A stretch of DNA of 64,000 nt from Candidatus Obscuribacteraceae bacterium (GTDB lineage Bacteria; Cyanobacteriota; Vampirovibrionia; Obscuribacterales; Obscuribacteraceae): NCBI GenBank assembly GCA_044229845.1, contig JBGASG010000004.1, forward strand, positions 96,001-160,000. Reading direction: 5' to 3'. Shown here one piece after another: positions 2,811 through 50,182 of this stretch. The translations under genes were made by a program, and so were the position numbers. Position 1 is the stretch's first letter; every line of letters begins with the position of its first letter. Below the pieces are notes generated by a model that saw only the letters and a program-made list of their open reading frames with translations, made no database searches and was not told the origin of the DNA.

Positions 2811-3635
2811 TTAAGCCGTCAATTTTTGATCCCGATTGCGATCGAGGGGCGTGTCCGGACCACTGATTTGCAAAGAAGGAAGTTGCAGTTTCTTCTGTTC
2901 TTGCAGTTGGGCTTTCTGCTGGTCCTTCAGCCACTGGTCCAGATCCTGGCGATATATACCCTGGCGTTCCGCCCCCGGTACACCTGGGACATGATCTGCA
3001 GTGTTGGCAATCTTGTCCCAGTTATTCAGAATCACGTTCAGGCTGGTCCGCTTCTCACCAGGAACAGACTTGAGGAAATTCTCGAACTCCGCTTTCGTCA
3101 GCGAGCCGTTGCCGTCAGTGTCAATCTTGTCGAAACGGGTCGTTTGTCCCGGCTCCGGACGGAAGAAGAAACGTCGCATGTCGCCGATGGCGACCGGTTC
3201 GTTGGTTTCGACGTGAGTGCTCATGCCGGTCGGATGCTGTGCGTCGCGCTTTTGCTCTCTGGTAATCGGTCCGGCGGGCTTGCCGTTTTTCCAGGCACAT
3301 TCGCCGACAACCTTGCCGTCTTTCGCATCGACGATGTACATCTCATCAGCCTGACTCTTACCGTGCGGGACATGGGCGATCATCAGGTGTCCGGTCTTAT
3401 CGAAGCCCACCAGATGCAAATCATCCTTGCCATGCAATGGTCCACCCGGAGCATGCAGCCCCTTATCGAACTGCTGCATCTGGTGGGAAAAACTCTTGTG
3501 GGCATTGTTTCCGGCATCGACTGTGTGACTGCGCGACCAGATATGGGCGGCTTCAGTCATCATCTTTTCGCCGGCGCCATTCTGTGTGTGATTGACCAGG
3601 GTCTCGCCTAGCTCATGGTGCAGGTGTTTGCTCAT
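2811..3635 (-). CDS. EF-hand-containing hypothetical protein
   Basis: EF-hand DTDGNGSLTKAE; GGAG before ATG 3635; no signal peptide. Confidence 0.65.
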   Translation of the reverse strand: MSKHLHHELGETLVNHTQNGAGEKMMTEAAHIWSRSHTVDAGNNAHKSFSHQMQQFDKGLHAPGGPLHGKDDLHLVGFDKTGHLMIAHVPHGKSQADEMYIVDAKDGKVVGECAWKNGKPAGPITREQKRDAQHPTGMSTHVETNEPVAIGDMRRFFFRPEPGQTTRFDKIDTDGNGSLTKAEFENFLKSVPGEKRTSLNVILNNWDKIANTADHVPGVPGAERQGIYRQDLDQWLKDQQKAQLQEQKKLQLPSLQISGPDTPLDRNRDQKLTA

Positions 3636-3665: not shown

Positions 3666-3721
3666 ACTGTATGGAAACCGCCGACCAAATTCGGGACACG
3701 CTTGTGACAATTTCGGGTCAG
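3666..3721 (-). promoter_or_regulatory. 11-bp-period direct-repeat (pho-box-like) promoter with -10 TACAGT
   Basis: Minus strand ctgaccc gaaa ttgtcac aagc gtgtccc gaat ttggtcg N10 TACAGT. Confidence 0.5.
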
Positions 3722-13044: not shown

Positions 13045-13668
13045 TCAATAAGGCTCGACTATCATATTGTTATCCTGAGCCGTTTTCAAAATCTCGACAC
13101 GAAGTGCATCGTCTTTGAGGGGGCAAACAGCCGTTGCAGAAAATGCTGCTGCGCAGCGCTCATAAAAGGCAAATGCATTCTCATCGTTGTGTGCATTGCC
13201 GAAGATAATTCCGTCGAGGTGCCCGTACACGAAAGTGTTCTCATAAAAGAATCGGGACCATGCTTGGCTGAATTGCCGGTTGCTGTCTTTGCAAACCGCC
13301 GATACAGTTCCGGCATTCATTGCACCCGTTCCTCGAAGATCAAGAAGGTTCAAGTCACGACTCACTGCTAAAGACGCGACCTCCACATTGCTCGTCTCAA
13401 CAATCTTCGCATCGCCAAAAATTTCAACGAGGCACCCGGAAAGAGCCTGAGCTGCATAAATGATGCCGCGGTCAGCGTCGTGCGCAGTTGTCGGAAAAGG
13501 TGCCCGATGGTGGTCGAACCGCGAGACTGGTCCGAAGTGGCGAAAACTTAGTGCTGTCGCACCGAACTTGGTCGGGTCAAATAGTCTGATCAGCTTCGAA
13601 CCCGCAGGCAGCACATAGAGAATTGGCTGAGGCGGATTCACAGGTGGTGGAAGAGTAATTTGAACCAA
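13045..13668 (-). CDS. RES-domain toxin (NAD+ phosphorylase-like)
   Basis: SRFDHH, IIYAA..LVEIF, LLDLRG, SQAWSR, DGIIF; lies directly downstream of the antitoxin; TTG start. Confidence 0.85.
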   Translation of the reverse strand: MVQITLPPPVNPPQPILYVLPAGSKLIRLFDPTKFGATALSFRHFGPVSRFDHHRAPFPTTAHDADRGIIYAAQALSGCLVEIFGDAKIVETSNVEVASLAVSRDLNLLDLRGTGAMNAGTVSAVCKDSNRQFSQAWSRFFYENTFVYGHLDGIIFGNAHNDENAFAFYERCAAAFSATAVCPLKDDALRVEILKTAQDNNMIVEPY

Positions 13669-13671
13669 ACC

Positions 13672-14280
13672 TTATGTCACCCCTACAGCCTGAGCTTCAT
13701 GGATGACTTCATCCAATTTTCCCTTTTTGAGGAGGTCCACCGGTCTCAAGCCCTCAAAAACCTTATTCGGGGAGGAAAGCCAACTGATTTTCGTGAACGT
13801 ATTGCAGCTCAGAGCTTTCATCACATCGGTTAGACCTTCTACAACACCGTTTGGACTCTGATGATCAAATTGCCAGTCAGGAAACTTCAATACGTTGTTA
13901 TCGAGGATGCCGAGCAACTGTCCTGTTCGGACGCGATCGTGCACGGTCTGGCGAGAGACACCCAACATGTCCGCGACAGTGGTGGCTGGGATTGCATGTG
14001 CCAAAAGACTCTTCCGATAGGCGAAAAACTTATACAGCGCGGCAAGGTCCAGCGCCTTTTGTTCATCGGGATCAGCCTGCCGCGCGCCTATCAAATTAGC
14101 GAATGAGGTGTTACCAGTGGAGGCGATTTTTTCTGGTGGCAAAACTCGTTTTTCGAGCCACTGCTCTCCTTCCGGTCCTAAGGTCTCTAACAGCTCATGC
14201 ACGAACGCACGCATCGCCGGCTCGTTTCTCAGGAACTCGAGTGCTCTTTGTTCAATTGGAGTCGGCTGCGTAGGAGACAT
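13672..14280 (-). CDS. Xre/MbcA/ParS-type antitoxin with HTH
   Basis: HTH VADMLGVSRQTVHDR, FPDWQF, C-terminal WLSSPN..EGLRPVDLL. Confidence 0.85.
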   Translation of the reverse strand: MSPTQPTPIEQRALEFLRNEPAMRAFVHELLETLGPEGEQWLEKRVLPPEKIASTGNTSFANLIGARQADPDEQKALDLAALYKFFAYRKSLLAHAIPATTVADMLGVSRQTVHDRVRTGQLLGILDNNVLKFPDWQFDHQSPNGVVEGLTDVMKALSCNTFTKISWLSSPNKVFEGLRPVDLLKKGKLDEVIHEAQAVGVT

Positions 14281-18737: not shown

Positions 18738-18824
18738 GAAAGTACGTGAGTGCGTACCGGATGCGGCTGCGCATGCGTATGAATGCACATTACTATCTGG
18801 CGGTGCCAATGCCAAGATGGGGGC

Positions 18825-20438
18825 ATGCCACCAGAAACACCACCTGACAGAAATCCATCCGCCGCAATTGACGATCAGTTAAATCCGCTGCGCAACCTGG
18901 TGCAGGCATACGGACAGCTTGCCGGACTGGACACCAACGGCAACGGTTTTCTCAGCCGCAGAGAACTCGACCGCGGCATAGCCGACCCGCGCTTCCAGGG
19001 CGATGAAGCGGCTGCCCTTGCCACTCTGCAGCGGCACCGCGGAGACATCAAGAAACTGCACCAGGATGGTGCGAACGAAATCACCGGGCTCAGCCGCGCC
19101 GATGTGCTGGAGCTCGCGCGCTTCTCACGGCTGGAAGCCATGCGATTGATTGCGGCAGGCGTGCCGATATTCCGCTCGTTCGACCGGGATGGCAGCGGCA
19201 ATTTGAGCCGTGAAGAACTGCGCACCGCGGCAAGAAACCTGCAAGACGGCGCCACCAAAGATGCCGTTCAGCAAATGCTCGACGACTTCGCGATTATCTC
19301 CGAGAACGGCGATAACATCACGTCCGCGCAGGTGCAGGACTATGTGGCGCGCCGAATGACGGCAGAGCAGCAGAGAACGACCACAGCTGTTGCCGGCAGT
19401 ATGCGGGAAGCGCAAACCGCAATTCGAGAGCAAGACCCCAGGTTATTCCGGGATGCACTGTCTCCATTCATGGCGATTCGCGGCGACTTGCTCCGGCAGG
19501 GGCGCGCCGGCGACTGCTGGCTGCTGTCGGCAGTTTCTTCCTACGCGCAGCAAAATCCGTGGGCCATTCCAAGAATGATCACGCGCAATGAAAACGGCAC
19601 GCTGACGGTGAATTTTCCTTTCAGGACTCCCGATGGCCAGCCCATTTCGGCGACGGTACAGCCGCCTACACAGGCAGAGATTGCCCGGTTCGCAAACAAC
19701 GGTTCTGCTGGAACATGGCTGCCGGTGATTGAGAAAGCGATCGGGCAATACTTCAAGGATCATCCGGAACAGCGCCGTCCGCTGACGGGGGTCGATCCAC
19801 CGCGACGCAATCATCTGTTGCCGCAGGATCACTTGCACGGCGCGGCCAATGCGTTCGCAACCAGCCTGGTATCAGGCGAAGCGGCGGCAACCGTGAGCCT
19901 GTCCACGCTCAACGACGACCAGTTGGATGCCATGTTGAGGTCGAACTTCCGCAATCCGTTGACGGCAATTTCTGATAGCAACTGGCCCAGACCGGTCGGC
20001 ACCGCCGTGCGTCAGCCAGGCAGAGTGAGGGCCGGCGCTCCAGGGGAGCCAATCAGAGAGCCGGATAACGCACCGCCGGATAGGGAGCCGGAACGGGAAC
20101 GAGAGCCGGATCTCTTTCCTCCGCGCCCGGAGCCGCGCCCGCCGCGTCCGAACATGCCGGAAGACCCGGAGGATGATGGGGAAGGCGATGATGACGACGA
20201 TGAAACGAAATCAGACGCCCACGAATTCGCTATTCTCAATTACAATTCGATCGACCGAGTGGTCACAATTCGCAACCCATGGGGCAGCGGCGAGCTGACA
20301 GACCAGCAAGGCAGACCGCGCGATGGTACCGATGACGGTATCATGCGGCTGAGCCTGGCGGAGTTCCGCGCTTACTTCACTGACTTGTCCGGTCCGGCTG
20401 TGGCGGAGTATCGCCGCCGTGCAGCACGACGCCCTTGA
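18825..20438 (+). CDS. EF-hand plus C2-family (calpain-like) cysteine protease
   Basis: EF-hands DTNGNGFLSRRE and DRDGSGNLSREE; catalytic motifs QGRAGDCWLLSA, HEFAI, IRNPWG. Confidence 0.85.
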   Translation: MPPETPPDRNPSAAIDDQLNPLRNLVQAYGQLAGLDTNGNGFLSRRELDRGIADPRFQGDEAAALATLQRHRGDIKKLHQDGANEITGLSRADVLELARFSRLEAMRLIAAGVPIFRSFDRDGSGNLSREELRTAARNLQDGATKDAVQQMLDDFAIISENGDNITSAQVQDYVARRMTAEQQRTTTAVAGSMREAQTAIREQDPRLFRDALSPFMAIRGDLLRQGRAGDCWLLSAVSSYAQQNPWAIPRMITRNENGTLTVNFPFRTPDGQPISATVQPPTQAEIARFANNGSAGTWLPVIEKAIGQYFKDHPEQRRPLTGVDPPRRNHLLPQDHLHGAANAFATSLVSGEAAATVSLSTLNDDQLDAMLRSNFRNPLTAISDSNWPRPVGTAVRQPGRVRAGAPGEPIREPDNAPPDREPEREREPDLFPPRPEPRPPRPNMPEDPEDDGEGDDDDDETKSDAHEFAILNYNSIDRVVTIRNPWGSGELTDQQGRPRDGTDDGIMRLSLAEFRAYFTDLSGPAVAEYRRRAARRP

Positions 20439-23466: not shown

Positions 23467-23522
23467 ATTTCACGAAAATTCCACGAACGTTTCACGAATC
23501 TGCCACGCTTGTCTCCTATGCT
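23467..23522 (+). promoter_or_regulatory. Four 11-bp-period direct repeats (pho-box-like) plus -10 TATGCT
   Basis: CACG at 23471, 23482, 23493 and 23504; TATGCT at 23517. Confidence 0.65.
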
Positions 23523-23594
23523 GCAAAAGTTCCCGCCGCTTTACTAAATGCAGCTTTTTGCATCCGTCCGGTTACTTCCCTTTTGGGTTTTACT

Positions 23595-23777
23595 ATGGCC
23601 GTAGATAAGAGCATTCCAGTCATGGAAGGTGCTGAAGCACGTGTCAAGCCTGCCGGCGACGGTGGCGTGACTCTGGGTGCCAACGCACTATCCGATCCCA
23701 CCGCCGGCGATCACATCGTCGGGATGAAACCCCACCACTCCGCAGCGAGTGGAACCGGCGCAGGGCAACCAACATAA
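23595..23777 (+). CDS. Small hypothetical protein (60 aa)
   Basis: ORF lies between a repeat-containing promoter and a strong terminator. Confidence 0.4.
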   Translation: MAVDKSIPVMEGAEARVKPAGDGGVTLGANALSDPTAGDHIVGMKPHHSAASGTGAGQPT

Positions 23778-24009: not shown

Positions 24010-24759
24010 CTAGTCGGCGACGATGCCGATGCGGGCGCGACGTTTGCTGGTTTCAGCCAGATCGCCTGCCATGTCGGCTTGTATGTTGGCAAACTTGTTT
24101 TCGATGCGACGCAGTGTCGATGCACTCAGTTCACCCTTGCGATTTGTTTTACGCGAAAGCACCGCTATTTCGTCGAGCTCTTTGCGCAGGTTTCTCACTT
24201 GATTGTGGCTCAGTTTGCCGCTGGCATGAGCGACACCGATTTGCAGATCGAGTTTGGCACGTCGATACGCGATGTTGTCGGCAAAGTAAACGAGCTTACC
24301 TTCCACGACCAAGAAGTGATCCGGCAATACTGCCGTCGCAGGCAGCGCAGTTACTGTGACCAGGCTTCCGGTCGCATCGACGGTGGCATAAACTTTGCCG
24401 GTCGATTGGTCGACGATGTATTCTCCTACTTCCAACGGAGCACCGTTGATCATGCGGGTGGCGATGTCGAATCTGCCGGTGATGATACCGCGGGTCGGAT
24501 GGACAACTATGTAGGATGGACCAGCCGGCAGCACCGCTGGTGATGACGAAACCACTGTCTTCGTCGCAGTCACAGTTCCGCCGGGCAGAGTCGTTGTTTC
24601 GGTGGTGGTGGTCTTCACTGTCTCGGTGACCGTGGCGGCTGGGATCGTGGTTTCGGTGACCGTGGTGGCGGGATACGTGATCACCTGCACGACTTCAGCA
24701 TTGGCCAACTGAACCGAACCCAATAAAGCTACGGACAGTGCCAGCAAGGTTGCTCTCAT
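24010..24759 (-). CDS. Secreted Thr/Val-rich hypothetical protein
   Basis: GAGGA RBS; signal peptide ending ANA; PAxTVTET repeats. Confidence 0.8.
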   Translation of the reverse strand: MRATLLALSVALLGSVQLANAEVVQVITYPATTVTETTIPAATVTETVKTTTTETTTLPGGTVTATKTVVSSSPAVLPAGPSYIVVHPTRGIITGRFDIATRMINGAPLEVGEYIVDQSTGKVYATVDATGSLVTVTALPATAVLPDHFLVVEGKLVYFADNIAYRRAKLDLQIGVAHASGKLSHNQVRNLRKELDEIAVLSRKTNRKGELSASTLRRIENKFANIQADMAGDLAETSKRRARIGIVAD

Positions 24760-24919: not shown

Positions 24920-26278
24920 ATGACCCAGGTTGACGAGCTAAAAGTCGCACAACTGTTTTTGGAACGGCATCGTCCAGCAGATGCCGAACAGCACGCGCGC
25001 AAGCATCTCTCGCAGAGCCCTGATGATGCGTGGGGACATCAGACGCTCGCACTGGCTCTCAACGCCCAGAAGCGCTACCGAGAAGCGCTCGCTGAGGCTA
25101 AGTTGGCAGTCAGTCTGGCTCCCGAAGAAGCCCACATCTATTACACACTGGCCAATGTTTACTACCACACCGACCTGTTGCAAGAATGCGAGACCGCAGT
25201 CGATCGAGCGATAGAACTATGCCCGACGCACGCTCCGTACTGGGGATTGAAAGCCAACGTCAAAATGGCGCAGGACAACTGGAGAGGCGCGCTCGCGGCT
25301 GCAGATGAAGGGCTGCGGCACGCGCCCACCCACATTCATTGCCAGAACTTGCGAGCACTGGCACTGGCGAGATTACACAAGAAGGATGTAGCCGAGACCG
25401 GTTTTGAAGAGTCGCTGCGGCAGGATCCAGACAATGCCTTGACGTTCGCATATCAGGGCTGGATGTATGTGCACCACGCCGACGCAGATAAGGCGCTAAC
25501 CGCGTTTGCTGAGGCACTGCGACTGGATCCTACCAATGACTGGGCCCGCACCGGCATGTTCTATGCCTTGCGCGAGAAACATCTCTTGTTTCACCTGGCT
25601 CGCAAAGTTCAACGTCCCGTGCCCATGGTATTCGGCTGGATGGGATTTATATTTGGGCTGCCGATATCCATTACCTTGATGGTAATGGCGGGTCAGAATT
25701 TCTGGTTGATACCGCTTGCGGTGCTCTCCTGGACGATCACAATCTCTTTGCTCGTGTTGCTCTATGTGCCGATCGATATGCGAGACGACACATTGAAAGC
25801 AATCATGCTTTTCGATAAGCGCGGTAAATATCTTCTGTCACCAGCGGAGCGGTCACAAGCCGCGCGCGTCTACTTTGGCGCATTCATTGGACTCTTTATC
25901 GGCATTGGTCTTGGTTTTGCCAAGGACAGCAAGCAGTGGAAATTTCTTGAGTTTCCCAAATTGACCAACTCAGAACAGACGGCGCTTGTCTGCATCGGTC
26001 TGGAGCTGGTGCTGATTTTGATTGCGGTGTTGGCGTTCTTCGGGAATGAGATGCCGGAGCAGCGGCGTAACAGTTTGACCGGCGTGCTGCTCACGCAAAT
26101 CGTGTTTCTGCCCGTCGCCATTTGCTCTGCCATCGGATTCTTCACCCCCTCTCTCCAAACCATGCTGATGACCGTGTCATCAGTATGGATCTTGTTTTCG
26201 GGGCTGCTCATCTGGATTTGCGCCGCACGGCTGCGCAGCTGGATCTCCAAACAACTGGAGTTACTCATCCCCAACTAG
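24920..26278 (+). CDS. TPR protein with C-terminal multi-pass membrane domain
   Basis: About 6 TPR repeats followed by about 6 TM helices. Confidence 0.85.
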   Translation: MTQVDELKVAQLFLERHRPADAEQHARKHLSQSPDDAWGHQTLALALNAQKRYREALAEAKLAVSLAPEEAHIYYTLANVYYHTDLLQECETAVDRAIELCPTHAPYWGLKANVKMAQDNWRGALAAADEGLRHAPTHIHCQNLRALALARLHKKDVAETGFEESLRQDPDNALTFAYQGWMYVHHADADKALTAFAEALRLDPTNDWARTGMFYALREKHLLFHLARKVQRPVPMVFGWMGFIFGLPISITLMVMAGQNFWLIPLAVLSWTITISLLVLLYVPIDMRDDTLKAIMLFDKRGKYLLSPAERSQAARVYFGAFIGLFIGIGLGFAKDSKQWKFLEFPKLTNSEQTALVCIGLELVLILIAVLAFFGNEMPEQRRNSLTGVLLTQIVFLPVAICSAIGFFTPSLQTMLMTVSSVWILFSGLLIWICAARLRSWISKQLELLIPN

Positions 26279-26440
26279 GGAAAATTTCACCTACCGCGCA
26301 GACAAACGTGTCAAGATAGAGGTAACTGAACTGAATATTCTATTCGCTTCGACCGCCGAGCCACTCGGAAGCGCGGACGAGCCGAATCTTCTGCCGTCTC
26401 CTGATCCAAGAAACGGATACCCCCTCATGAGGACGGGACC

Positions 26441-27004
26441 ATGGAAGGAACCTCTCGCAGTGCCCTGCTCAAGACGCTCGCTGCGGTGCCGCTTGCCGCC
26501 ACAGTCGGTGTCATTGTTTCTCCTTTAGTAAGATTTGTTTTGCCCACGCGTAAGCCGCTCGATCTGTTCGCCCCATCGGATCAACCCGTGGTGCTGCAGT
26601 CAGTATCGTTTGCGGCGAACCAGTTCCCCACCGCCTGGACCTGCCAGGAATTCACCTTCGTCCAGCAATATGTGCAGTACAACCCGGAAGGCAAGGATTA
26701 TCGCAAAATCCCCGGATACGCGGTCAAACTGCCGAGCGGCGAAGTGGTGGCATACAGCCGCATCTGCCCGCACCTCGGTTGTATCTTCAACTTCGTAGAA
26801 GACCCGGATGAGTGCGCCAAGAAATACAACTACCGGCCGCAAGGTCCGGTGTTTGCCTGCCCATGTCACCAGAGTGTCTACGATATCGCTAATGATGGCA
26901 GAGTCGTGAGCGGACCCGCTCCCCGACCGCCGCGCAAGTTCACCATCCACAAGGCGGGCGACACAATAGCTATCACCGGGCTGGAGTCCGGTGGCATCGC
27001 GTAA
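26441..27004 (+). CDS. Rieske 2Fe-2S protein (QcrA/PetC-like)
   Basis: CPHLGC and CPCHQS boxes, GPAPRP, N-terminal anchor. Confidence 0.93.
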   Translation: MEGTSRSALLKTLAAVPLAATVGVIVSPLVRFVLPTRKPLDLFAPSDQPVVLQSVSFAANQFPTAWTCQEFTFVQQYVQYNPEGKDYRKIPGYAVKLPSGEVVAYSRICPHLGCIFNFVEDPDECAKKYNYRPQGPVFACPCHQSVYDIANDGRVVSGPAPRPPRKFTIHKAGDTIAITGLESGGIA

Positions 27005-27027: not shown

Positions 27028-29085
27028 TTATGGCTTCCGGCGCCGTCTTTCGATGTCTTGCCGGATCTGGTCGCCGTATTGCTGCCACAGTTTGGCTGCC
27101 TTTTGCGGCGACTCGAACTGGTAGTGCCACTCATCTCCACGGACAAATTTGCCTCTCCAGCCGACCGCACGCAGTGCCGCGTCGACATCGGGATCCTGGA
27201 AGTTTTTCACATCCATGGCGCTGCCGCGTTCGTGCATCGAGCGTCCTTCCGGAGCATGAATGCCTTGAGCGAGACGTTGCTGAGTATGGGTGCGACCGGC
27301 GGAGTTCTGCTGATCGGTGGTCCCTTCCGACGCCAGAATGACGCGCTTGCCTTTGGCTTCGAGTAGTTTGTTGGCGAGGGCCAGCGATTCAGCCGCTGGG
27401 CGGTCTAGCCAGAGCGGCTGGTCGGCGATCACCTGACGGCGGCCCCGTGCATCGGGTCCGGTAATAGTGCCTTTGTATCCAATATAGACAGGCTCGATTT
27501 TCTTGCCGCCGCCCGGACGGTTCCCGACGTCGTTGACAATTTTAGGATCGGTTACTGCATCAAGCATCAAGGGATCGCCGTCGGCTCTGGGCGGTAGAAC
27601 CGTGGGTGGTGGCACTTTGTCTTTCACCACAGGCGGCGTCACTTCCGGTGGGCGCACCACAGGCGGACGCACTACCGGTGGGCGAACCTCAGGAGGGCTC
27701 ACCACAGGCGCCCCGGTGGCGCGCTCGGCGTATTGCGAAACCGTGCTGTCGCCAACGTTCGCGCCCCACCACTTGCCGTGGAAGTCCGAGTCGCCGCGGC
27801 GGTCTTTCTGCTTGCTGATCGCTCCATTGCGGTCGACCCAACGCAATACCGGGTGCTGTCCACCAGCGGTATCGGCAGCGTGTACGTTCATAAGCTTGGT
27901 GACTTTGCCCATCGAGATGCGGTGGATATCGAACTCGCGCATGGTCTCGCCGTCTTTGAGGGCGACTCGCACCTTGCCGTCTTTGGTCTTCGGACCCTGT
28001 TCCCAGAGCTTGGCGAAGGCAGAGGCTTTGTCGTTGAACGAGGCTTTCGGATCTTCGATGGTCGAGATCAGTTTCTGATCGACTCCCTTTTGCCATTCCG
28101 GCACGGTGACGTCGCCGCTGCGCGGAGCCGGCAATACTTCCTGTCCGCGCGGTGGACGGACGACTGGCGGTTCGCCTTCGCGTTTCGGTGGCTTGTCTTT
28201 ACCGGGCGGAGCGATTGTGCCGTCGTTGTTGATCTTCGTATTGAGAACTTCCATGGAGAATCCGTGTTTGACGTGCGGACTGTTCCACGCTTCTATTTCA
28301 GGTCGGCTCTTGCTGCCGGGGTCGACAGCCAGGTCCACGCGTCCCGCGCCCTTAATGCTGCCACCGGTGTCGACTACGCGGAAGTGAACTCCGGTCAGGT
28401 CGAATCCATATTTCTGTTTGTAGGCGTCGCCCCATTTGGCAATCCAGGCATCTTTGGACATGCCGGTCATCTGCTGGAAGAAAGCGTCGTTCTGCATTTC
28501 AGCAATGCGGAACATGGTGCCGTATTTGCCGTTGGCGTGCCGAGGATCGCCTGCGGCGGCGGCATATCCGGCTTTAACCGGATCGGCGAGAAACTTTTGC
28601 AGGGTGTGATCGGGAAGATAGACTGGTGGTGTACGGTCGGGAGGGGTCGAACCGTAGGCTCCGCCCTGACCGCGGACCGGTTCATAAACGGTTTGCCAGG
28701 ATTGCAACTTGGACACCACCTGCGGTGCCTTATCGGCGGTGGACGGCACTGCGTCGGCAGCCAGATTCACCTGTCGGTCGTTGCCACTGGTACGACGCAC
28801 CGGGCTGTTATAAGTAATGTCCAGAGTCGGAACCGGCATGTTCCAATTAGCCATAGCATTGGAGAACCAGAGGCTGCCGTTGTTCTCTGTCGAACCGAAC
28901 GAGAATCCACGGTTAGTAATGTCGGTGCGTCCTGATAGTTCCAGGGTGCGCGCGGCGGCAAAAACATCAGGTCCGGCTGCCGTGATAGCCAGGTCGTTAT
29001 CGCCTGCGGTGCGAAGCGGGGGGACATCCAGAACGGTAGACGTGTCCGGATCGTGATCCGGCGTTCTATGGGGTGCGCCTGTCAT
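27028..29085 (-). CDS. 3D-domain plus M15 peptidase multidomain peptidoglycan hydrolase
   Basis: AGDP..G and VVDTGGSIKGAGRVDL (3D); SAGRT..QQ, SMHERGSAMD, DEWH (M15); VVRPP linkers. Confidence 0.75.
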   Translation of the reverse strand: MTGAPHRTPDHDPDTSTVLDVPPLRTAGDNDLAITAAGPDVFAAARTLELSGRTDITNRGFSFGSTENNGSLWFSNAMANWNMPVPTLDITYNSPVRRTSGNDRQVNLAADAVPSTADKAPQVVSKLQSWQTVYEPVRGQGGAYGSTPPDRTPPVYLPDHTLQKFLADPVKAGYAAAAGDPRHANGKYGTMFRIAEMQNDAFFQQMTGMSKDAWIAKWGDAYKQKYGFDLTGVHFRVVDTGGSIKGAGRVDLAVDPGSKSRPEIEAWNSPHVKHGFSMEVLNTKINNDGTIAPPGKDKPPKREGEPPVVRPPRGQEVLPAPRSGDVTVPEWQKGVDQKLISTIEDPKASFNDKASAFAKLWEQGPKTKDGKVRVALKDGETMREFDIHRISMGKVTKLMNVHAADTAGGQHPVLRWVDRNGAISKQKDRRGDSDFHGKWWGANVGDSTVSQYAERATGAPVVSPPEVRPPVVRPPVVRPPEVTPPVVKDKVPPPTVLPPRADGDPLMLDAVTDPKIVNDVGNRPGGGKKIEPVYIGYKGTITGPDARGRRQVIADQPLWLDRPAAESLALANKLLEAKGKRVILASEGTTDQQNSAGRTHTQQRLAQGIHAPEGRSMHERGSAMDVKNFQDPDVDAALRAVGWRGKFVRGDEWHYQFESPQKAAKLWQQYGDQIRQDIERRRRKP

Positions 29086-29153: not shown

Positions 29154-29187
29154 AGGGTAGAACTAGAATGTGGCAGATTTGTGAAAC
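29154..29187 (-). promoter_or_regulatory. pho-box-like direct repeat plus -10 TACCCT
   Basis: GTTTCACAAATCTGCCAC-N10-TACCCT-GCAAAA; 17/18 identical to the box at 23489-23506. Confidence 0.65.
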
Positions 29188-29264
29188 GCGCATGGGAGAA
29201 TTCCCATTGCCCTGTTCAATCCTATGCTAAAGTGCGAGGACCTTAGACAGAAAGGACTCTGAGC

Positions 29265-29711
29265 ATGAGCATCTCGAACTTCAAAACGGCAGCAATCAGC
29301 TTCGTCTTCGGCTTTGCCGGTGCCTGCACCGCCATAGCCGTTGCCGCCGGTCCAAAAGCCTCGGAGGAAGTAGTAACCAAGAAATTCACCCTGGTCAACT
29401 CCGCCGGCAAGCCCGTAATCATGATGATGACTGATGGAGAGAAGGGACACCCCCGCTTACTGGTGAAAGCAGCAGATGAAAAATCGGGCGTCTCGCTGCG
29501 TGTCGATGAAGAAACAGGTAGGGGTCAGGTGGCGGGATTGAGCGCCGAATACGGCACTAAGACCGGGGCGGTAGTGGGCGTTAGCGAGGGCGAGTCACGT
29601 GTGCGCGTCTTCTGCGGCGACCAGTCCAAATTTGCCGCGGTCAACGCAACAAAAGCACGTCAGGAATTCGTAGTGATGGACGGCAAAGACGTGCATTGGC
29701 GCTCCAAATAA
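29265..29711 (+). CDS. Exported hypothetical protein
   Basis: AAGGA RBS, signal/TM segment, beta-rich body. Confidence 0.7.
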   Translation: MSISNFKTAAISFVFGFAGACTAIAVAAGPKASEEVVTKKFTLVNSAGKPVIMMMTDGEKGHPRLLVKAADEKSGVSLRVDEETGRGQVAGLSAEYGTKTGAVVGVSEGESRVRVFCGDQSKFAAVNATKARQEFVVMDGKDVHWRSK

Positions 29712-31696: not shown

Positions 31697-31752
31697 CGTA
31701 CACAAAACATACACAAGAAATTCACAAGATATTCCGGATTTGTTCCGATGCT
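31697..31752 (+). promoter_or_regulatory. 11-bp-period direct repeats with a possible -10
   Basis: CACAA at 31701, 31712 and 31723; GATGCT at 31747 in the same register as 23517; an extra CACGAA pair at 31794/31804. Confidence 0.45.
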
Positions 31753-31882
31753 CTCCTCTAGAGTAGGTGCGCTTGGACTTCATCCCGCCGTGTCACGAAA
31801 ATCCACGAATTGGGTATAAAGCTCAAGGACCCGCAACTTTTACCATCCGTCATTTCGAGCCCGCCGAAGAGAGGATTTTGTC

Positions 31883-32257
31883 ATGGTCGCCAAACCTGCA
31901 CATGTAGAAAGCGCCGACGACGCCGCCGTTGCCCGTCCGGTCGAGACCGCAGTTATTCAACAACAGACTGCTACAGCATTAACAACGCCGGAATCCACTG
32001 TCGCCTACCAGCAGATGCAGGGCACAACGAACACCGAAGGCTGGCTCAATAACAATCTGTCCCTGGTCGACGACAAGGCAAGCAAGGGCAAGCCTACCGA
32101 CTCAACAACTCAAACTCTGTCGACCGACCCGAGCGAGACGCCGGAACCGCCGCCGCCCGAGTATGCGGTCAAGCAAAATGAAGGCCGCGTGTTCCTGGCT
32201 TCGGATGATACCTATCCATCCGAAACACCCGAACCACCGCCGCCCGAGAACGCTTAG
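31883..32257 (+). CDS. Small acidic protein with duplicated PSETPEPPPPE motif
   Basis: GAGGA RBS; 11-aa motif present twice. Confidence 0.7.
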   Translation: MVAKPAHVESADDAAVARPVETAVIQQQTATALTTPESTVAYQQMQGTTNTEGWLNNNLSLVDDKASKGKPTDSTTQTLSTDPSETPEPPPPEYAVKQNEGRVFLASDDTYPSETPEPPPPENA

Positions 32258-35698: not shown

Positions 35699-35815
35699 TC
35701 CTGGCACCGGGCTATCTTTCCGGGCGGTCTCCCGCCAAGTATTGTCGCTGCTGACCGTCTTTACCGTCGTGTTCGGGATGGGAACGGGTGTGTTCCGGTC
35801 GCATCGGCACCAAGA
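35699..35815 (-). rRNA. rrf: 5S rRNA
   Basis: Minus strand TCTTGGTGCC..CCCGTTCCCATCCCGAACACG..GGTGCCAGGA; about 117 nt. Confidence 0.97.
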
Positions 35816-35961
35816 AGCTTTAGGTCTGGCTCTTCTTGGGGATCTTTTCAGATCACTGCGGGCACTGGAGCCCTATTTAAGAGCCGTAACCTGAGACTGC
35901 ACACCTGAGAAGGTTTGGCTATGTATTTCGATTCGAGGATCTAGCATCCAGTGATAGATCA

Positions 35962-38920
<2,959 letters not shown>

Positions 38921-39344
38921 GATAGACTTGTCACTCAGCCGCAATGCTCACGCCGACTTTCGCCGACGAGGGCACCGCATTTGGTGCAAGCCTGATCTAT
39001 TTCGATACTAGACTTTCGTTTCTATTGTTTCTCAGATATGCAGTTTTCAGGGTACGGACCAGAATTGATACGGCTTCTGGAGCGCCGTCACGTATTGACC
39101 CGTGCGAATTGCTTATAGTACCAGATATCTTTCTTGCCGTGCAATCCGTTCAATGAAATTCACTGAAGAATTGCTCTGCGAGCGAACCCTGGTGTTTCGA
39201 GGGTCATACACCGAACATTCGCGCTCACCAAGCAGTTAGCTCGTGACCGCGGATTTATAAGAGTATCACACCGACTTGGAGCTATCCGCTCTTTGTTTTC
39301 CGATGTGAAGGGAGCGTTGGAAACGCTCACCCTACCTCAATCTC

Positions 39345-39417
39345 TGGAGGCTAGCGGAGTCGAACCGCTGACCTTCTCCGTGCAAAGGAGACGCTCTACC
39401 AACTGAGCCAAGCCCCC
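39345..39417 (-). tRNA. tRNA-Ala(TGC)
   Basis: Cloverleaf, anticodon loop TTTGCAC, G3:U70, no encoded CCA. Confidence 0.97.
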
Positions 39418-39545
39418 ACAGTACTGGTTTCTTCCTTATAGAGGATCTGGTTGGGTGCACATCGAGCCGTTAACAATGTCTTCAAGCTTTGAAAACGGTT
39501 GTGTTACAGCGGGCAGCCGCCAAACATATTTATAGGGAGGAAAAC

Positions 39546-39619
<74 letters not shown>

Positions 39620-39753: not shown

Positions 39754-41943
39754 CTACACAGAGATTGCGGCTTCTTCTTTCAGCTTCTGGAAAGCTTCTT
39801 CCGGATCGACTTGCTCGCTCGTGATCTTATTCATTATGTAGGAGATGGCGAAAACGCCCTCGTCAAGCGAGAGTGTATTGGCGCGAACGGCTTCGTAAAT
39901 ACGGACGATCGCTTCGATGCAGCGGTCGTCGAGCACTCCGACCATCGACAGCGAAGTGGCAACGATCAACGGCGTACGCACGGCGAGTGCCAGAGCGTTC
40001 TTGATGTCGGCCTCATGGGCAACGCTAGACAGCATGAGGAACTTGTTGAACGCCAGCTGGCTGTTGTCAACTTCTTCGGTGCCGATCTCGGTTTTCTTCG
40101 GCTCAGGATCTTGCGGCTCAACAGCGGCGCCCTCTTCGACGAGCGCCTCCAACTGATCTTCATAGGTCTTACTGGAGACCGGCGCTGCCACTGCTTCCTG
40201 CTGCGCCTGTTGAATTTGTTTCTCCTGCTGCACTTGCTTGGCTTCGCGCGCGGCTTTCGCTTTGGCATCAGCCTCAAGAAGCGCTTTGCGGGCGGCTTCG
40301 GTTTCCGCTTCGATAATCTGCATGCGCAGCAATTCCACTTCGCTCAATCCACCGGCACCGATAGCCGGTCCGGGCGGAGTCGATGGCGCTTGCGGCGGCA
40401 AAGTGTCTTTATCCAGACCACGCAACAGTCCTTTCGCTTGACCGATCGGTACATGCACCGGTCCAGCGGGCATCGGCGCTGCGGGCGGCGGCTCGGGCGC
40501 TTTCTCTGGCTCAGGTTCAGCCTGCGGCTCCGGCACGGAAGGGACCGTCAGCCCTTTAGGCTTCGACGGTTCAGTGGCATAGGAAAAAACTTTCGGGGGT
40601 CGCGTCGCCGTCAGGTCTGCATCGCCATCGAGGGCAGGCTGCGAGCCTGTATTTACATTAAGAGCGGGTTGCGAGCCGGTGTTGGTCTGTTCAAACATAC
40701 CGCCGCCGCCGCGCACGTTCTGCATAGACTTGGCAAAAGCTTCTTCCAGGTCGGCCATCACCATCTTTTTCTCTTCGGTATGGCTGGCTTTTTGGGCCAC
40801 CTGACCGGGCATGGCAATGGCGCGCATCTGCTGCGTTTCATCCTGCGGCATGATGATGTTGCCCAGCACGGTGCTGGATGCCATAGGTCCGCCGGCGCCG
40901 ACTTCCGGCTCCGGTTCGCTCAACAAGCCACCCTGAAGATCTTCCATAGATATGGCTTTCATCTGCAGAGTGTCGGACAGCACTTGCGGTGGTGCCGCCT
41001 TGGTTGCCAGCGACATCTTGAGGGCGTCTAGAGTTTCTTGTTTGACTGGAAATGCACAGTGCACCTCCCACAACTCTTGATAGGCATCTTCAGGACTGCA
41101 TGTACCGTTGCGGGCCGCAGTCTGCAGCTCGATGGCGGCCGAAAGCGTTTCTTCCGAGACCAGTCCGTTCTGCACCAGCATCGTGCCGACGTTTTTGTTT
41201 TGCTCCAGCCCCATCTCGACCGCATTGCGCACATCGAACTCGGTGGCGATGCCGGCACAAATGACCAGATCGCCTAATTTGAGGTTGGCTTTCTGAGTCT
41301 TCTTCTTTTCTTCGTCGTCGACGGACAGCTGTCTTTTGTAGGCGATATTGAGCGCCTTGATGGCTACATCACGCTCGACCTTGCCGTCCCGGATCAATAC
41401 TTGTGCGTTGAGGGCGGCGTTCAGGAAAGTTTCGGTGAGCACGCCGGAAAGCACCAGAGTGCGTCCCAGGGGCAAACCGGTAGAGTTACTCTTCAGCCTG
41501 GCTTTCTCTACCTGTTCCGTTGACAGAATTCCGGCATCAATAAGGAATTCACCCAACTGACTGACGGGGTTGATGTCTTTGCCGCCGGCAGAAGGCGCAG
41601 TATGACCAGCTCTTCCCAGGGCATCGGCGAAGCTTATGCCGGAACGATGAGCCAGGCGCAAGGCCCGCACCGCGTTATAGAGGTCGAGTGAGCCGTCTTT
41701 GATCATGTCTTGCGCCTGGATCGCCATGTCCAGGTGCTTACGCTGAATGTAATTCATGGCCAGCAGGATTTCGCCCACGCGGGCTGTATTGGTTCCCGCC
41801 TGCCGCATGGCATCGGTAAGCACTTCCTGAGGAATAATTCCAGCTCTCACAAGCAGGTCGCCAAGCCTGACTTGAGCATTCTTACCCGCCCAGAACGACT
41901 GGGAAAGCAGACTCGGGGACTTACCTGATTGGTCTTGCGACAC
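39754..41943 (-). CDS. MshEN-like repeat protein with Pro/Ala-rich linker
   Basis: RLGDLLVRAG, RVGEILLAMN, QLGEFLIDAG, PLGRTLVLSG, KLGDLVICAG; GTG start with RBS. Confidence 0.75.
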   Translation of the reverse strand: MSQDQSGKSPSLLSQSFWAGKNAQVRLGDLLVRAGIIPQEVLTDAMRQAGTNTARVGEILLAMNYIQRKHLDMAIQAQDMIKDGSLDLYNAVRALRLAHRSGISFADALGRAGHTAPSAGGKDINPVSQLGEFLIDAGILSTEQVEKARLKSNSTGLPLGRTLVLSGVLTETFLNAALNAQVLIRDGKVERDVAIKALNIAYKRQLSVDDEEKKKTQKANLKLGDLVICAGIATEFDVRNAVEMGLEQNKNVGTMLVQNGLVSEETLSAAIELQTAARNGTCSPEDAYQELWEVHCAFPVKQETLDALKMSLATKAAPPQVLSDTLQMKAISMEDLQGGLLSEPEPEVGAGGPMASSTVLGNIIMPQDETQQMRAIAMPGQVAQKASHTEEKKMVMADLEEAFAKSMQNVRGGGGMFEQTNTGSQPALNVNTGSQPALDGDADLTATRPPKVFSYATEPSKPKGLTVPSVPEPQAEPEPEKAPEPPPAAPMPAGPVHVPIGQAKGLLRGLDKDTLPPQAPSTPPGPAIGAGGLSEVELLRMQIIEAETEAARKALLEADAKAKAAREAKQVQQEKQIQQAQQEAVAAPVSSKTYEDQLEALVEEGAAVEPQDPEPKKTEIGTEEVDNSQLAFNKFLMLSSVAHEADIKNALALAVRTPLIVATSLSMVGVLDDRCIEAIVRIYEAVRANTLSLDEGVFAISYIMNKITSEQVDPEEAFQKLKEEAAISV

Positions 41944-50109: not shown

Positions 50110-50182
50110 TGGAGATAAGGGGATTCGAACCCCTGACCTCACGGGTGCGATCCGTGCGCTCTACCAACTGAGCTATATCCCC
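50110..50182 (-). tRNA. tRNA-Ala(CGC)
   Basis: Anticodon arm CACGG-ATCGCAC-CCGTG; G3:U70; no encoded CCA. Confidence 0.93.

Follow-up and report, generated by a model that had tools for sequence, protein, structure and literature searches.

The E. coli pho box, a 7-4-7 direct repeat with an 11-bp period that ends 10 nt before the -10 element, is the described operator closest in geometry to the promoter element reported here. The cyanobacterial RppA/NrsR-type regulators form another point of comparison, with NrsR having a comparable TTTCA direct repeat. HLR1 of RpaB, an OmpR-family direct repeat from the same phylum, has an 8-nt repeat unit, a 2-nt gap and a TTACA core, and activates near -51, as given in the accessible part of the source (PMC6525291). 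The named motif nearest in letters is the cre/blr-tag, TTCACnnnnnnTTCAC, of E. coli CreB and Aeromonas BlrA, which in the portion of the source available (PMC3660660) has a TTCAC core at an 11-bp period in the promoters of OmpR-family regulons.

Like these elements, the motif belongs to a known kind, being an OmpR-type activator box with pho-box geometry. It differs from the pho box in that its half-sites end in CAC, not CAT, and phosphate genes are not its targets. It differs from HLR1 in having an 11-nt rather than a 10-nt period and in abutting the -10 element. The TTCAC-N6-TTCAC core of the cre/blr-tag matches the box, whereas the informative spacer (RAAW), the second half-site (often TKCCAC) and the unrelated targets set the two apart. 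What is new is the regulon, a candidate regulator, paralogue-specific subtypes and an order-wide type IV system as candidate exporter. We found no account of the motif, the regulon or the secretion system in the literature lying outside subscription journals and supplements.

The window analysed is a 64-kb stretch (G000:C19:96001-160000) of the genome of an Obscuribacteraceae member, a non-photosynthetic relative of cyanobacteria in the same phylum. This source genome, G000, has 5.16 Mb and is 88% complete; G001 is its sister species. The named sequences closest to its TyrRS come from Obscuribacterales genomes (93% and 61-64%), in keeping with this placement. Genes were predicted by a simple dicodon model (4420 in G000, with approximate start positions), and motifs were counted over 2961 gene-oriented upstream regions of G000. 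The RNA data are assembled contigs from sludge RNA libraries (runs X1, X5, X10 and X13), from which transcript starts are not readable. Contig cover indicates sequence presence only, and stretches with none, e.g. 24936-26770, are uninformative. Runs with small word shares were excluded from the habitat reading.

Site A (23467..23506, + strand) consists of four heptamers at an 11-bp period, that is, two type-I boxes in tandem (29.6 and 32.5 bits). A predicted -10-like hexamer, TATGCT (23517..23522, +), lies 10 nt past the last heptamer, and the whole spans 23467-23522. Site B is a single type-I box, GTTTCAC-AAAT-CTGCCAC (29170..29187, -; 28.7 bits), with a -10-like TACCCT (29154..29159, -) 10 nt past it, together spanning 29187-29154. 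The two share the box GTTTCAC-RAAT-CTGCCAC, the 10-nt spacing and the hexamer position, as the initial annotation had claimed, and the exact 16-mers of A and B are the sole zero-mismatch matches within the window. The GCAAAA that had been counted into the motif after the -10 hexamer drops out of it, since it reads TCAAAA at A in G001 and carries no information in the family matrix.

Site A is followed by a 60-aa orphan ORF (23595..23777, +), for which a Pfam scan gave no match. The sequence of site A is identical in G001, and the ORF is preserved there with one silent and two conservative changes; it is covered by RNA-library contigs in X1 and X5. Site B is identical in G001 as far as the edge of an insertion. 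The alignment with G001 breaks about 20 nt upstream of the site B box, and a 148-aa gene upstream of site B (29211-29711) is missing at the same place in G001.

The gene of site B encodes a 685-aa protein without a signal peptide (27028..29085, -), pieces of which are present in RNA-library contigs of X1, X5 and X10. Its layout comprises an acidic leader, a probable 3D domain, Pro repeats, a probable M15 peptidase and an Arg-rich C-terminus. The initial labels 3D and M15 were borne out weakly by Pfam (3D, E 0.059; VanY, E 0.022; both below cut-off). The single-sequence fold was poor (pLDDT 39) and gave no significant structural match, the hedgehog/VanY-like rows being without significance. The protein is likely a peptidoglycan hydrolase.

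Site C (3682..3721, -) also has four heptamers but belongs to a rarer subtype, with TGACCC / TGTCAC half-sites. As claimed for it earlier, it keeps the 11-bp register and is followed, 10 nt past the last heptamer, by TACAGT (3666..3671, -), although its half-sites differ from those of A and B. It precedes a 274-aa protein without a signal peptide (2811..3635, -), whose EF-hand label was confirmed. Site D (31697..31747, +) has five heptamers of a genus-specific subtype (TACAC, TTCAC, TTCCG, TTCCG) and precedes a 124-aa orphan Pro-repeat protein (31883..32257, +) with RNA-library contigs in X1 and X5. The box reported at 31697-31752 was real; its assigned -10, GATGCT, was wrong. In G001 GATGCT has become GATGCG and four spacer bases have changed while TAGAGT is retained, and we therefore reassigned the -10 of site D to TAGAGT (31759..31764, +), 11 nt past the last heptamer. 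Between site D and its gene lies a second conserved element, GTGTCAC..ATCCAC with a 10-bp period and then TATAAA (31790-31820, +). The beginnings of RNA-library contigs from two studies, at positions 31836 and 31837, hint weakly at a nearer start or at processing.

Several unboxed features of the window were also observed. A 249-aa orphan with a signal peptide (24010-24759, -) is the sole gene under X13 contigs in the compared stretch. An EF-hand and calpain-like protein (18783-20438, +) is a paralogue of the boxed C1:258395. A RES-domain toxin with an Xre/MbcA-like antitoxin (13045-14280, -) lies in a region that differs in G001. The 23S and 5S rRNA genes, with tRNAs, are at 35699-39619 (-) and 50110-50182 (-); the rRNA genes look unlinked, no 16S match being present between the tRNAs and a 736-aa gene at 39754.

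The initial annotation had read the box as an OmpR/PhoB-type direct repeat standing in the -35 place, and genome-wide period and gap statistics bear this prediction out. When YCAC..YCAC pairs were counted over the 2961 upstream regions, a count made without use of the four window sites, the only peak was at 11 bp (77 against 26.7 expected); on the opposite strand 46 were found at 11 bp against 23.5 expected. Of the 77 pairs, 15 were followed by TAnnnT at gap 10, five at gap 21, four at gap 11 and at most two at any other gap, against a background of 1.1%. An iterated matrix gave 53 promoters of at least 14 bits with the consensus RTTTCAC-RAAW-YTKCCAC-R-N9-TAnnnT, and 49 of the 53 retained 12 bits when left out of the matrix. 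Many sites are arrays of four heptamers in the 11-nt register with the -10 behind the last. For 51 sites found by the box alone, the -10 was at gap 10 in 14, at gap 11 in seven and at gap 32 in seven. Box-only matches of at least 18 bits were intergenic in 47 of 49 cases, though non-coding DNA makes up 15% of the genome.

Scanning with shuffles as control, which had been proposed as the check on the motif, supported it: 28 upstream regions reached 18 bits, compared with none in each of five shuffles. The full search procedure returned 13, 14, 10 and 0 sites on shuffled DNA and 47 on real DNA, so the low-scoring part of the list is noisy and about 35-40 entries are safe. By these predictions G000 has some 35-50 boxed promoters. 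Promoters with -35 and -10 elements and a 17-nt spacer also exist in G000 (152, compared with 41-74 at other spacers); the boxed promoters are thus a separate class.

Other motifs were met in the same DNA. The palindrome GCACC-N6-GGTGC is abundant in intergenic DNA of G000 (core 171 against 10.6 expected; 548 strand-matches). GGAAC-N16-CGTC pairs, which we take to resemble an ECF sigma promoter, are enriched upstream (63 against 9.4), as is the motif AAGCGATAT / TGA..GATATC. A further subtype with 11-bp period is built of CTCCACACTT units, with nine matches, often in arrays of four or five (examples at G000:C8:74744, C6:117339, C1:776146 and C1:778613).

The box is not confined to the source genome. 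The exact 17-mer box, without the -10, is present in 15 of 24 family genomes, and of 36 exact boxes in other genera, 14 are followed by TAnnnT at gap 10 and three at the next most frequent offset. A looser pattern including the -10 gave 182 matches in 23 of the 24 family genomes, and the reversed control gave 20; outside the family, in 16 genomes, the pattern matched four times and the control seven times. A matrix built from 79 sites of other genera alone ranked B 2nd, A 3rd, D 40th and C 233rd among the 2961 G000 promoters. As judged from these sequences the box geometry is clearly inherited across the family, in which the genomes are related and the counts not independent. Tad pilin/TadG-like genes are boxed with a spacer variant of their own in several genera (L156, L157, L146, L086, L225), not in G000.

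A single regulator had been proposed for all four window sites. If one regulator of relaxed specificity read them, the CAC cores at an 11-bp period common to all four would be explained, and one matrix does score at least 20 bits for every one of them. By sequence, however, the sites fall into three subtypes, type I (A and B), C and D, which differ in half-sites, spacing and neighbouring regulators. Site C has one other copy of its subtype in the genome (C18:6934); a matrix of the two gave 49.6 bits, and everything else 20.1 or less. Site D scored 47.8 bits on its own matrix and 39.8 with itself left out, while the D matrix gave A 12.3 and B 1.9 bits. When that matrix was built from six sites with no -10 columns, it found three new sites, each with TAnnnT at gap 11, making nine promoters in total. 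The D pattern occurs in G000 (six) and G001 (four) and in none of 39 other genomes, i.e. in 2 of 41. The TTCCG half-sites, the 11-nt gap, this narrow range and the low cross-scores argue against a common reader, as do D-type boxes that adjoin another regulator in two separate loci, and we regard a single regulator as unlikely.

The pho-box geometry made an unusual Pho regulon an obvious candidate, and the initial annotation had raised it. On the G000 model, the phoB and pstS promoters of E. coli K-12 score 19.1 and 15.7 bits, phoB having the same spacing, and G000 holds a PhoR-like/PhoB-like/PhoU-like operon whose PhoB-like gene, C1:252078, could supply the reader. The best box score upstream of this operon is, however, -3.1 bits, and pstS was sought in G000 and G001 and not found. 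Among 16 pstS-like loci of the family, of which one alone passes the PstS cut-off and most are weak matches, none reached 11 bits (the best, at 309 nt, had 10.8). The box that pstS or phoU had been expected to carry is thus absent from the loci scanned. Phosphate uptake or scavenging genes were found neither among 40 G000 first genes nor among 51 relatives' genes scanned, and the type-I regulator candidate C19:60763 scores 209 bits against the PhoB model, with a cut-off of 296. A Pho regulon is extremely improbable.

The reader might also be an ancestral cyanobacterial RpaB or RpaA, or DnaA. RpaB passes its NCBIfam cut-off in G000, and an RpaA-like gene is presumably present as well. Some second half-sites fit the DnaA box consensus; on the other hand, CAC is followed equally often by G and by A, unlike the DnaA box. 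The box period of 11, not 10, speaks against the HLR1 architecture. According to the available part of the source (PMC4040986), every order of the class has rpaA and rpaB; the box, by contrast, is limited to a single family. We consider these readers very improbable. CreB was also tried as reader and rejected: it falls outside the expanded regulator clade in the tree, and C19:60763 reaches 176 bits against a CreB cut-off of 273.

That expanded clade offers more suitable candidates. G000 has 26 OmpR-type genes, 14 full-length ones of which form one clade (support 99/98). The clade is present in 17 of 17 family genomes, with 3 to 31 close copies each, and was matched in 1 of 10 other genomes. 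Across five genomes with 8, 14, 24, 35 and 86 regulators, box matches numbered 0, 0, 6, 15 and 24, and the two rise together. Over the whole of G000, boxes near clade regulators were not enriched (4 of 70 against 2.3 expected).

One member of the clade, C19:60763-61434, is an orphan OmpR-family regulator with no adjacent kinase, 35 kb away; three genes upstream of it is a small gene whose sequence reads as Hpt-like. Among NCBIfam models the regulator matches RppA best, below the cut-off (227.8 bits against 250). The RppA/NrsR-type regulators differ from the situation here, where 3 to 31 close clade copies occur per genome, box variants seem to be particular to each subclade and no kinase lies next to the type-I member. 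In three genera, the regulators that adjoin type-I-like boxes are orthologues of C19:60763 (65-73%). Its protein sequence retrieved 30 loci, in five of which the regulator was not parsed; 13 form one branch with a common recognition helix. On the sister side of the C19:60763 branch, 7 of 8 regulators, from seven genera, have a box and gap-10 -10 directly behind them, whereas control windows scored as high in 1 of 66. A box-only matrix made from these seven regulator-adjacent boxes ranked B 3rd, A 8th, C 50th and D 171st of 2961. Over 23 genomes, orthologue identity and the exact type-I box count correlated with rho 0.60, kin not being independent. As C19:60763 and its four closest orthologues have no adjacent box (0 of 5), its link to the box draws on the sister branch and on this correlation across related genomes. 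We consider it fairly probable that this regulator is the reader of A and B.

In the same seven genera (L267-L271, L275, L279), a boxed gene for an orphan protein of 65-96 aa with an LKSLQ-like motif, possibly a feedback inhibitor, comes after that of the type-I-like regulator.

For site D a separate reader is quite likely. Three D-type sites flank C19:430172-430849 and its kinase. The nearest G001 protein to C19:430172 (63%) is its tree sister at a different locus and has a D-type box with a gap-11 -10 adjacent to it; G001 has D-type boxes, yet only this 63% relative.

In G000 the genes behind the boxes are mostly orphans that appear to lack signal peptides, and in this the initial annotation has held up. 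A Pfam scan gave no match for 27 of 40 G000 first genes. The 40 come from the 58 top genes outside the window; the second 20 were hand-picked, with some housekeeping genes omitted, so that the share is inflated. The other first genes include RHS/YD-repeat, LysM, EF-hand, clostripain, trypsin, FHA, kinase, GNAT and transpeptidase genes and two sensor kinases. Targets longer than 900 aa were frequent (11 of 53, against a background of 3.7%), and those with signal-peptide-like starts were rare by a crude hydrophobicity rule (7 of 53, against 27%). As predicted from these data, the type-I regulon of G000 likely comprises roughly 30-45 genes, mostly encoding orphan proteins without signal peptides.

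Two further traits were seen in the G000 targets. A classifier trained on 15 unboxed YD-family proteins found an acidic leader in 20 of 56 (above the 95th percentile; 5% expected), while only 17 of 178 acidic-leader genes are boxed. Arginine in the last 12 residues averaged 1.46 (n=56) against 0.85 (p 1.5e-4; tested after being noticed). Neither was enriched in the targets of pooled relatives, where leaders were found in 3 of 33 and 0 of 40, Arg tails gave 0.94 against 0.85 and 11 of 40 targets had signal-peptide-like starts; this pool mixes several box subtypes and rough ORF calls. A box found only in G001 precedes an acidic-leader protein without a signal peptide. The G000 proteome has at least 26 YD-like repeat proteins and more than 100 acidic disordered-leader proteins without signal peptides, most of them unboxed.

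Several box-gene pairs persist across genera, e.g. those of an EF-hand/calpain-like protein and of a secreted protein. A YD-repeat giant is boxed in three genera. Its C-terminal domain (pLDDT 73) matched calpain cores at middling Z of 6.3 and 6.1 over about 170 residues; these came from a wide aligner only, Foldseek giving no match for the domain. The Arg-rich tail of this calpain-like protein is conserved in all three, including where the protease part has disappeared. An iterated search for a middle domain shared among targets found none. An N-terminal [LF]P-x-h-x-h-x-D profile derived from G000 targets was present in 5 of 33 relatives' targets and in 49 of 4038 other proteins. As an export tag it was rejected and is kept as a weak lead: a second set gave 3 of 40, there was no genome-wide N-terminal enrichment, and a homologue search was empty.

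If such proteins leave the cell, a type IV-like system is the candidate exporter. G000 has two VirB4-like ATPases, which surfaced through weak FtsK matches after being missed by a search with the Pfam VirB4 family. An orthologue is present in 24 of 24 family genomes and in three of three other genomes of the order, mostly at 76-86% identity; 13 genomes of other orders gave two weak matches. Two syntenic chromosomal clusters recur (L101:1255-14816, i.e. G000:C17:20254-33815; L102:8297-10915; L117-L124; L177) with TrbL/VirB6-like proteins, a pilin-like gene, a VirD4-like protein and a Replic_Relax gene. The VirD4-like gene is found in G001 and another 25 genomes of the order; in G000 it would lie past a contig end. 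The best models for VirB4 are Gram-positive-like/F-type, below their cut-offs. The Replic_Relax gene adjoins one of the clusters and points to DNA transfer. Searches for type III, type VI, sheath and flagellar-type export ATPase genes found none in G000, which is 88% complete; it has two Tad clusters and two secretins besides. A scan of 26 genes of G000 for secretion, Tad and related functions found no box upstream of any, and one VirB6-like gene is boxed in G013.

Two systems are comparable, as described in the available parts of both sources: bactericidal type IV secretion in Xanthomonadales (PMC8740702) and a predatory type IV system that has been proposed in Vampirovibrio chlorellavorus (PMC4451040). 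The present case resembles them in combining chromosomal VirB4/VirD4-like genes with probable wall hydrolases that lack signal peptides; positive C-termini are export signals in several type IV systems (PMC8740702). It differs from the Xanthomonadales in that no XVIPCD-like shared domain was seen among the targets. The VirB4 of Vampirovibrio is reported in the accessible text as T-type (PMC4451040), not the type found here, and a Replic_Relax gene beside one cluster sets the present system apart from both. Export of the targets we infer only tentatively, as possible and still doubtful.

The same regulation could instead serve an envelope, surface or developmental programme, with the proteins acting in or on the producer. 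The boxes of other genera precede genes for signal-peptide proteins, Tad pilin, TPR, GGDEF, thioredoxin-like and efflux proteins, as this would lead one to expect, and the missing effector traits in pooled relatives agree with it, as does the lack of type III, type VI and sheath genes. Against it, the probable hydrolase and the LysM, clostripain-like and YD-repeat proteins, which have no signal peptides, lack an obvious cytoplasmic substrate, the Arg-rich tail persists in three genera even without the protease part, and the relatives' pool is mixed in subtype and rough in its ORF calls. We consider such a programme rather unlikely. The effector programme suggested earlier is plausible in G000, where a candidate exporter is present; its traits were not replicated in the pooled relatives.

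The reading that we favour, with moderate confidence, is that of an OmpR-type promoter element read by paralogous regulators, which in G000 would control a cell-contact regulon. A phosphorylated OmpR-family regulator would bind the box of A and B, replace the -35 element and recruit the housekeeping sigma factor. A head-to-tail dimer would cover two heptamers, and the four-heptamer array at site A could hold two dimers. Sites C and D would follow the same logic and are likely read by sister paralogues of the clade expanded in the family, for site D C19:430172 with its kinase. The targets would be inducible cell-contact proteins with acidic leaders and hydrolase-like or YD-repeat bodies, and would most likely leave the cell through the chromosomal type IV secretion system of the order.

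Obscuribacterales are widespread, uncultured, non-photosynthetic relatives of cyanobacteria. The box gives a first promoter code for the family, and C19:60763 is a specific candidate regulator open to in vitro tests that need no culture. The subtypes are also a natural example of parallel divergence between regulator paralogues and their boxes. In its widest form, which is speculative and in our judgement improbable as a whole, the order would consist of contact-dependent antagonists or predators in which the order-wide type IV system delivers orphan hydrolases by the dozen, the type-I box and one orphan OmpR regulator act as the switch, and duplicated regulators with re-tuned boxes run further effector sets. 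If the targets are exported, the finding would mean a predatory or antagonistic lifestyle for the order and would provide a list of new wall hydrolases and proteases.
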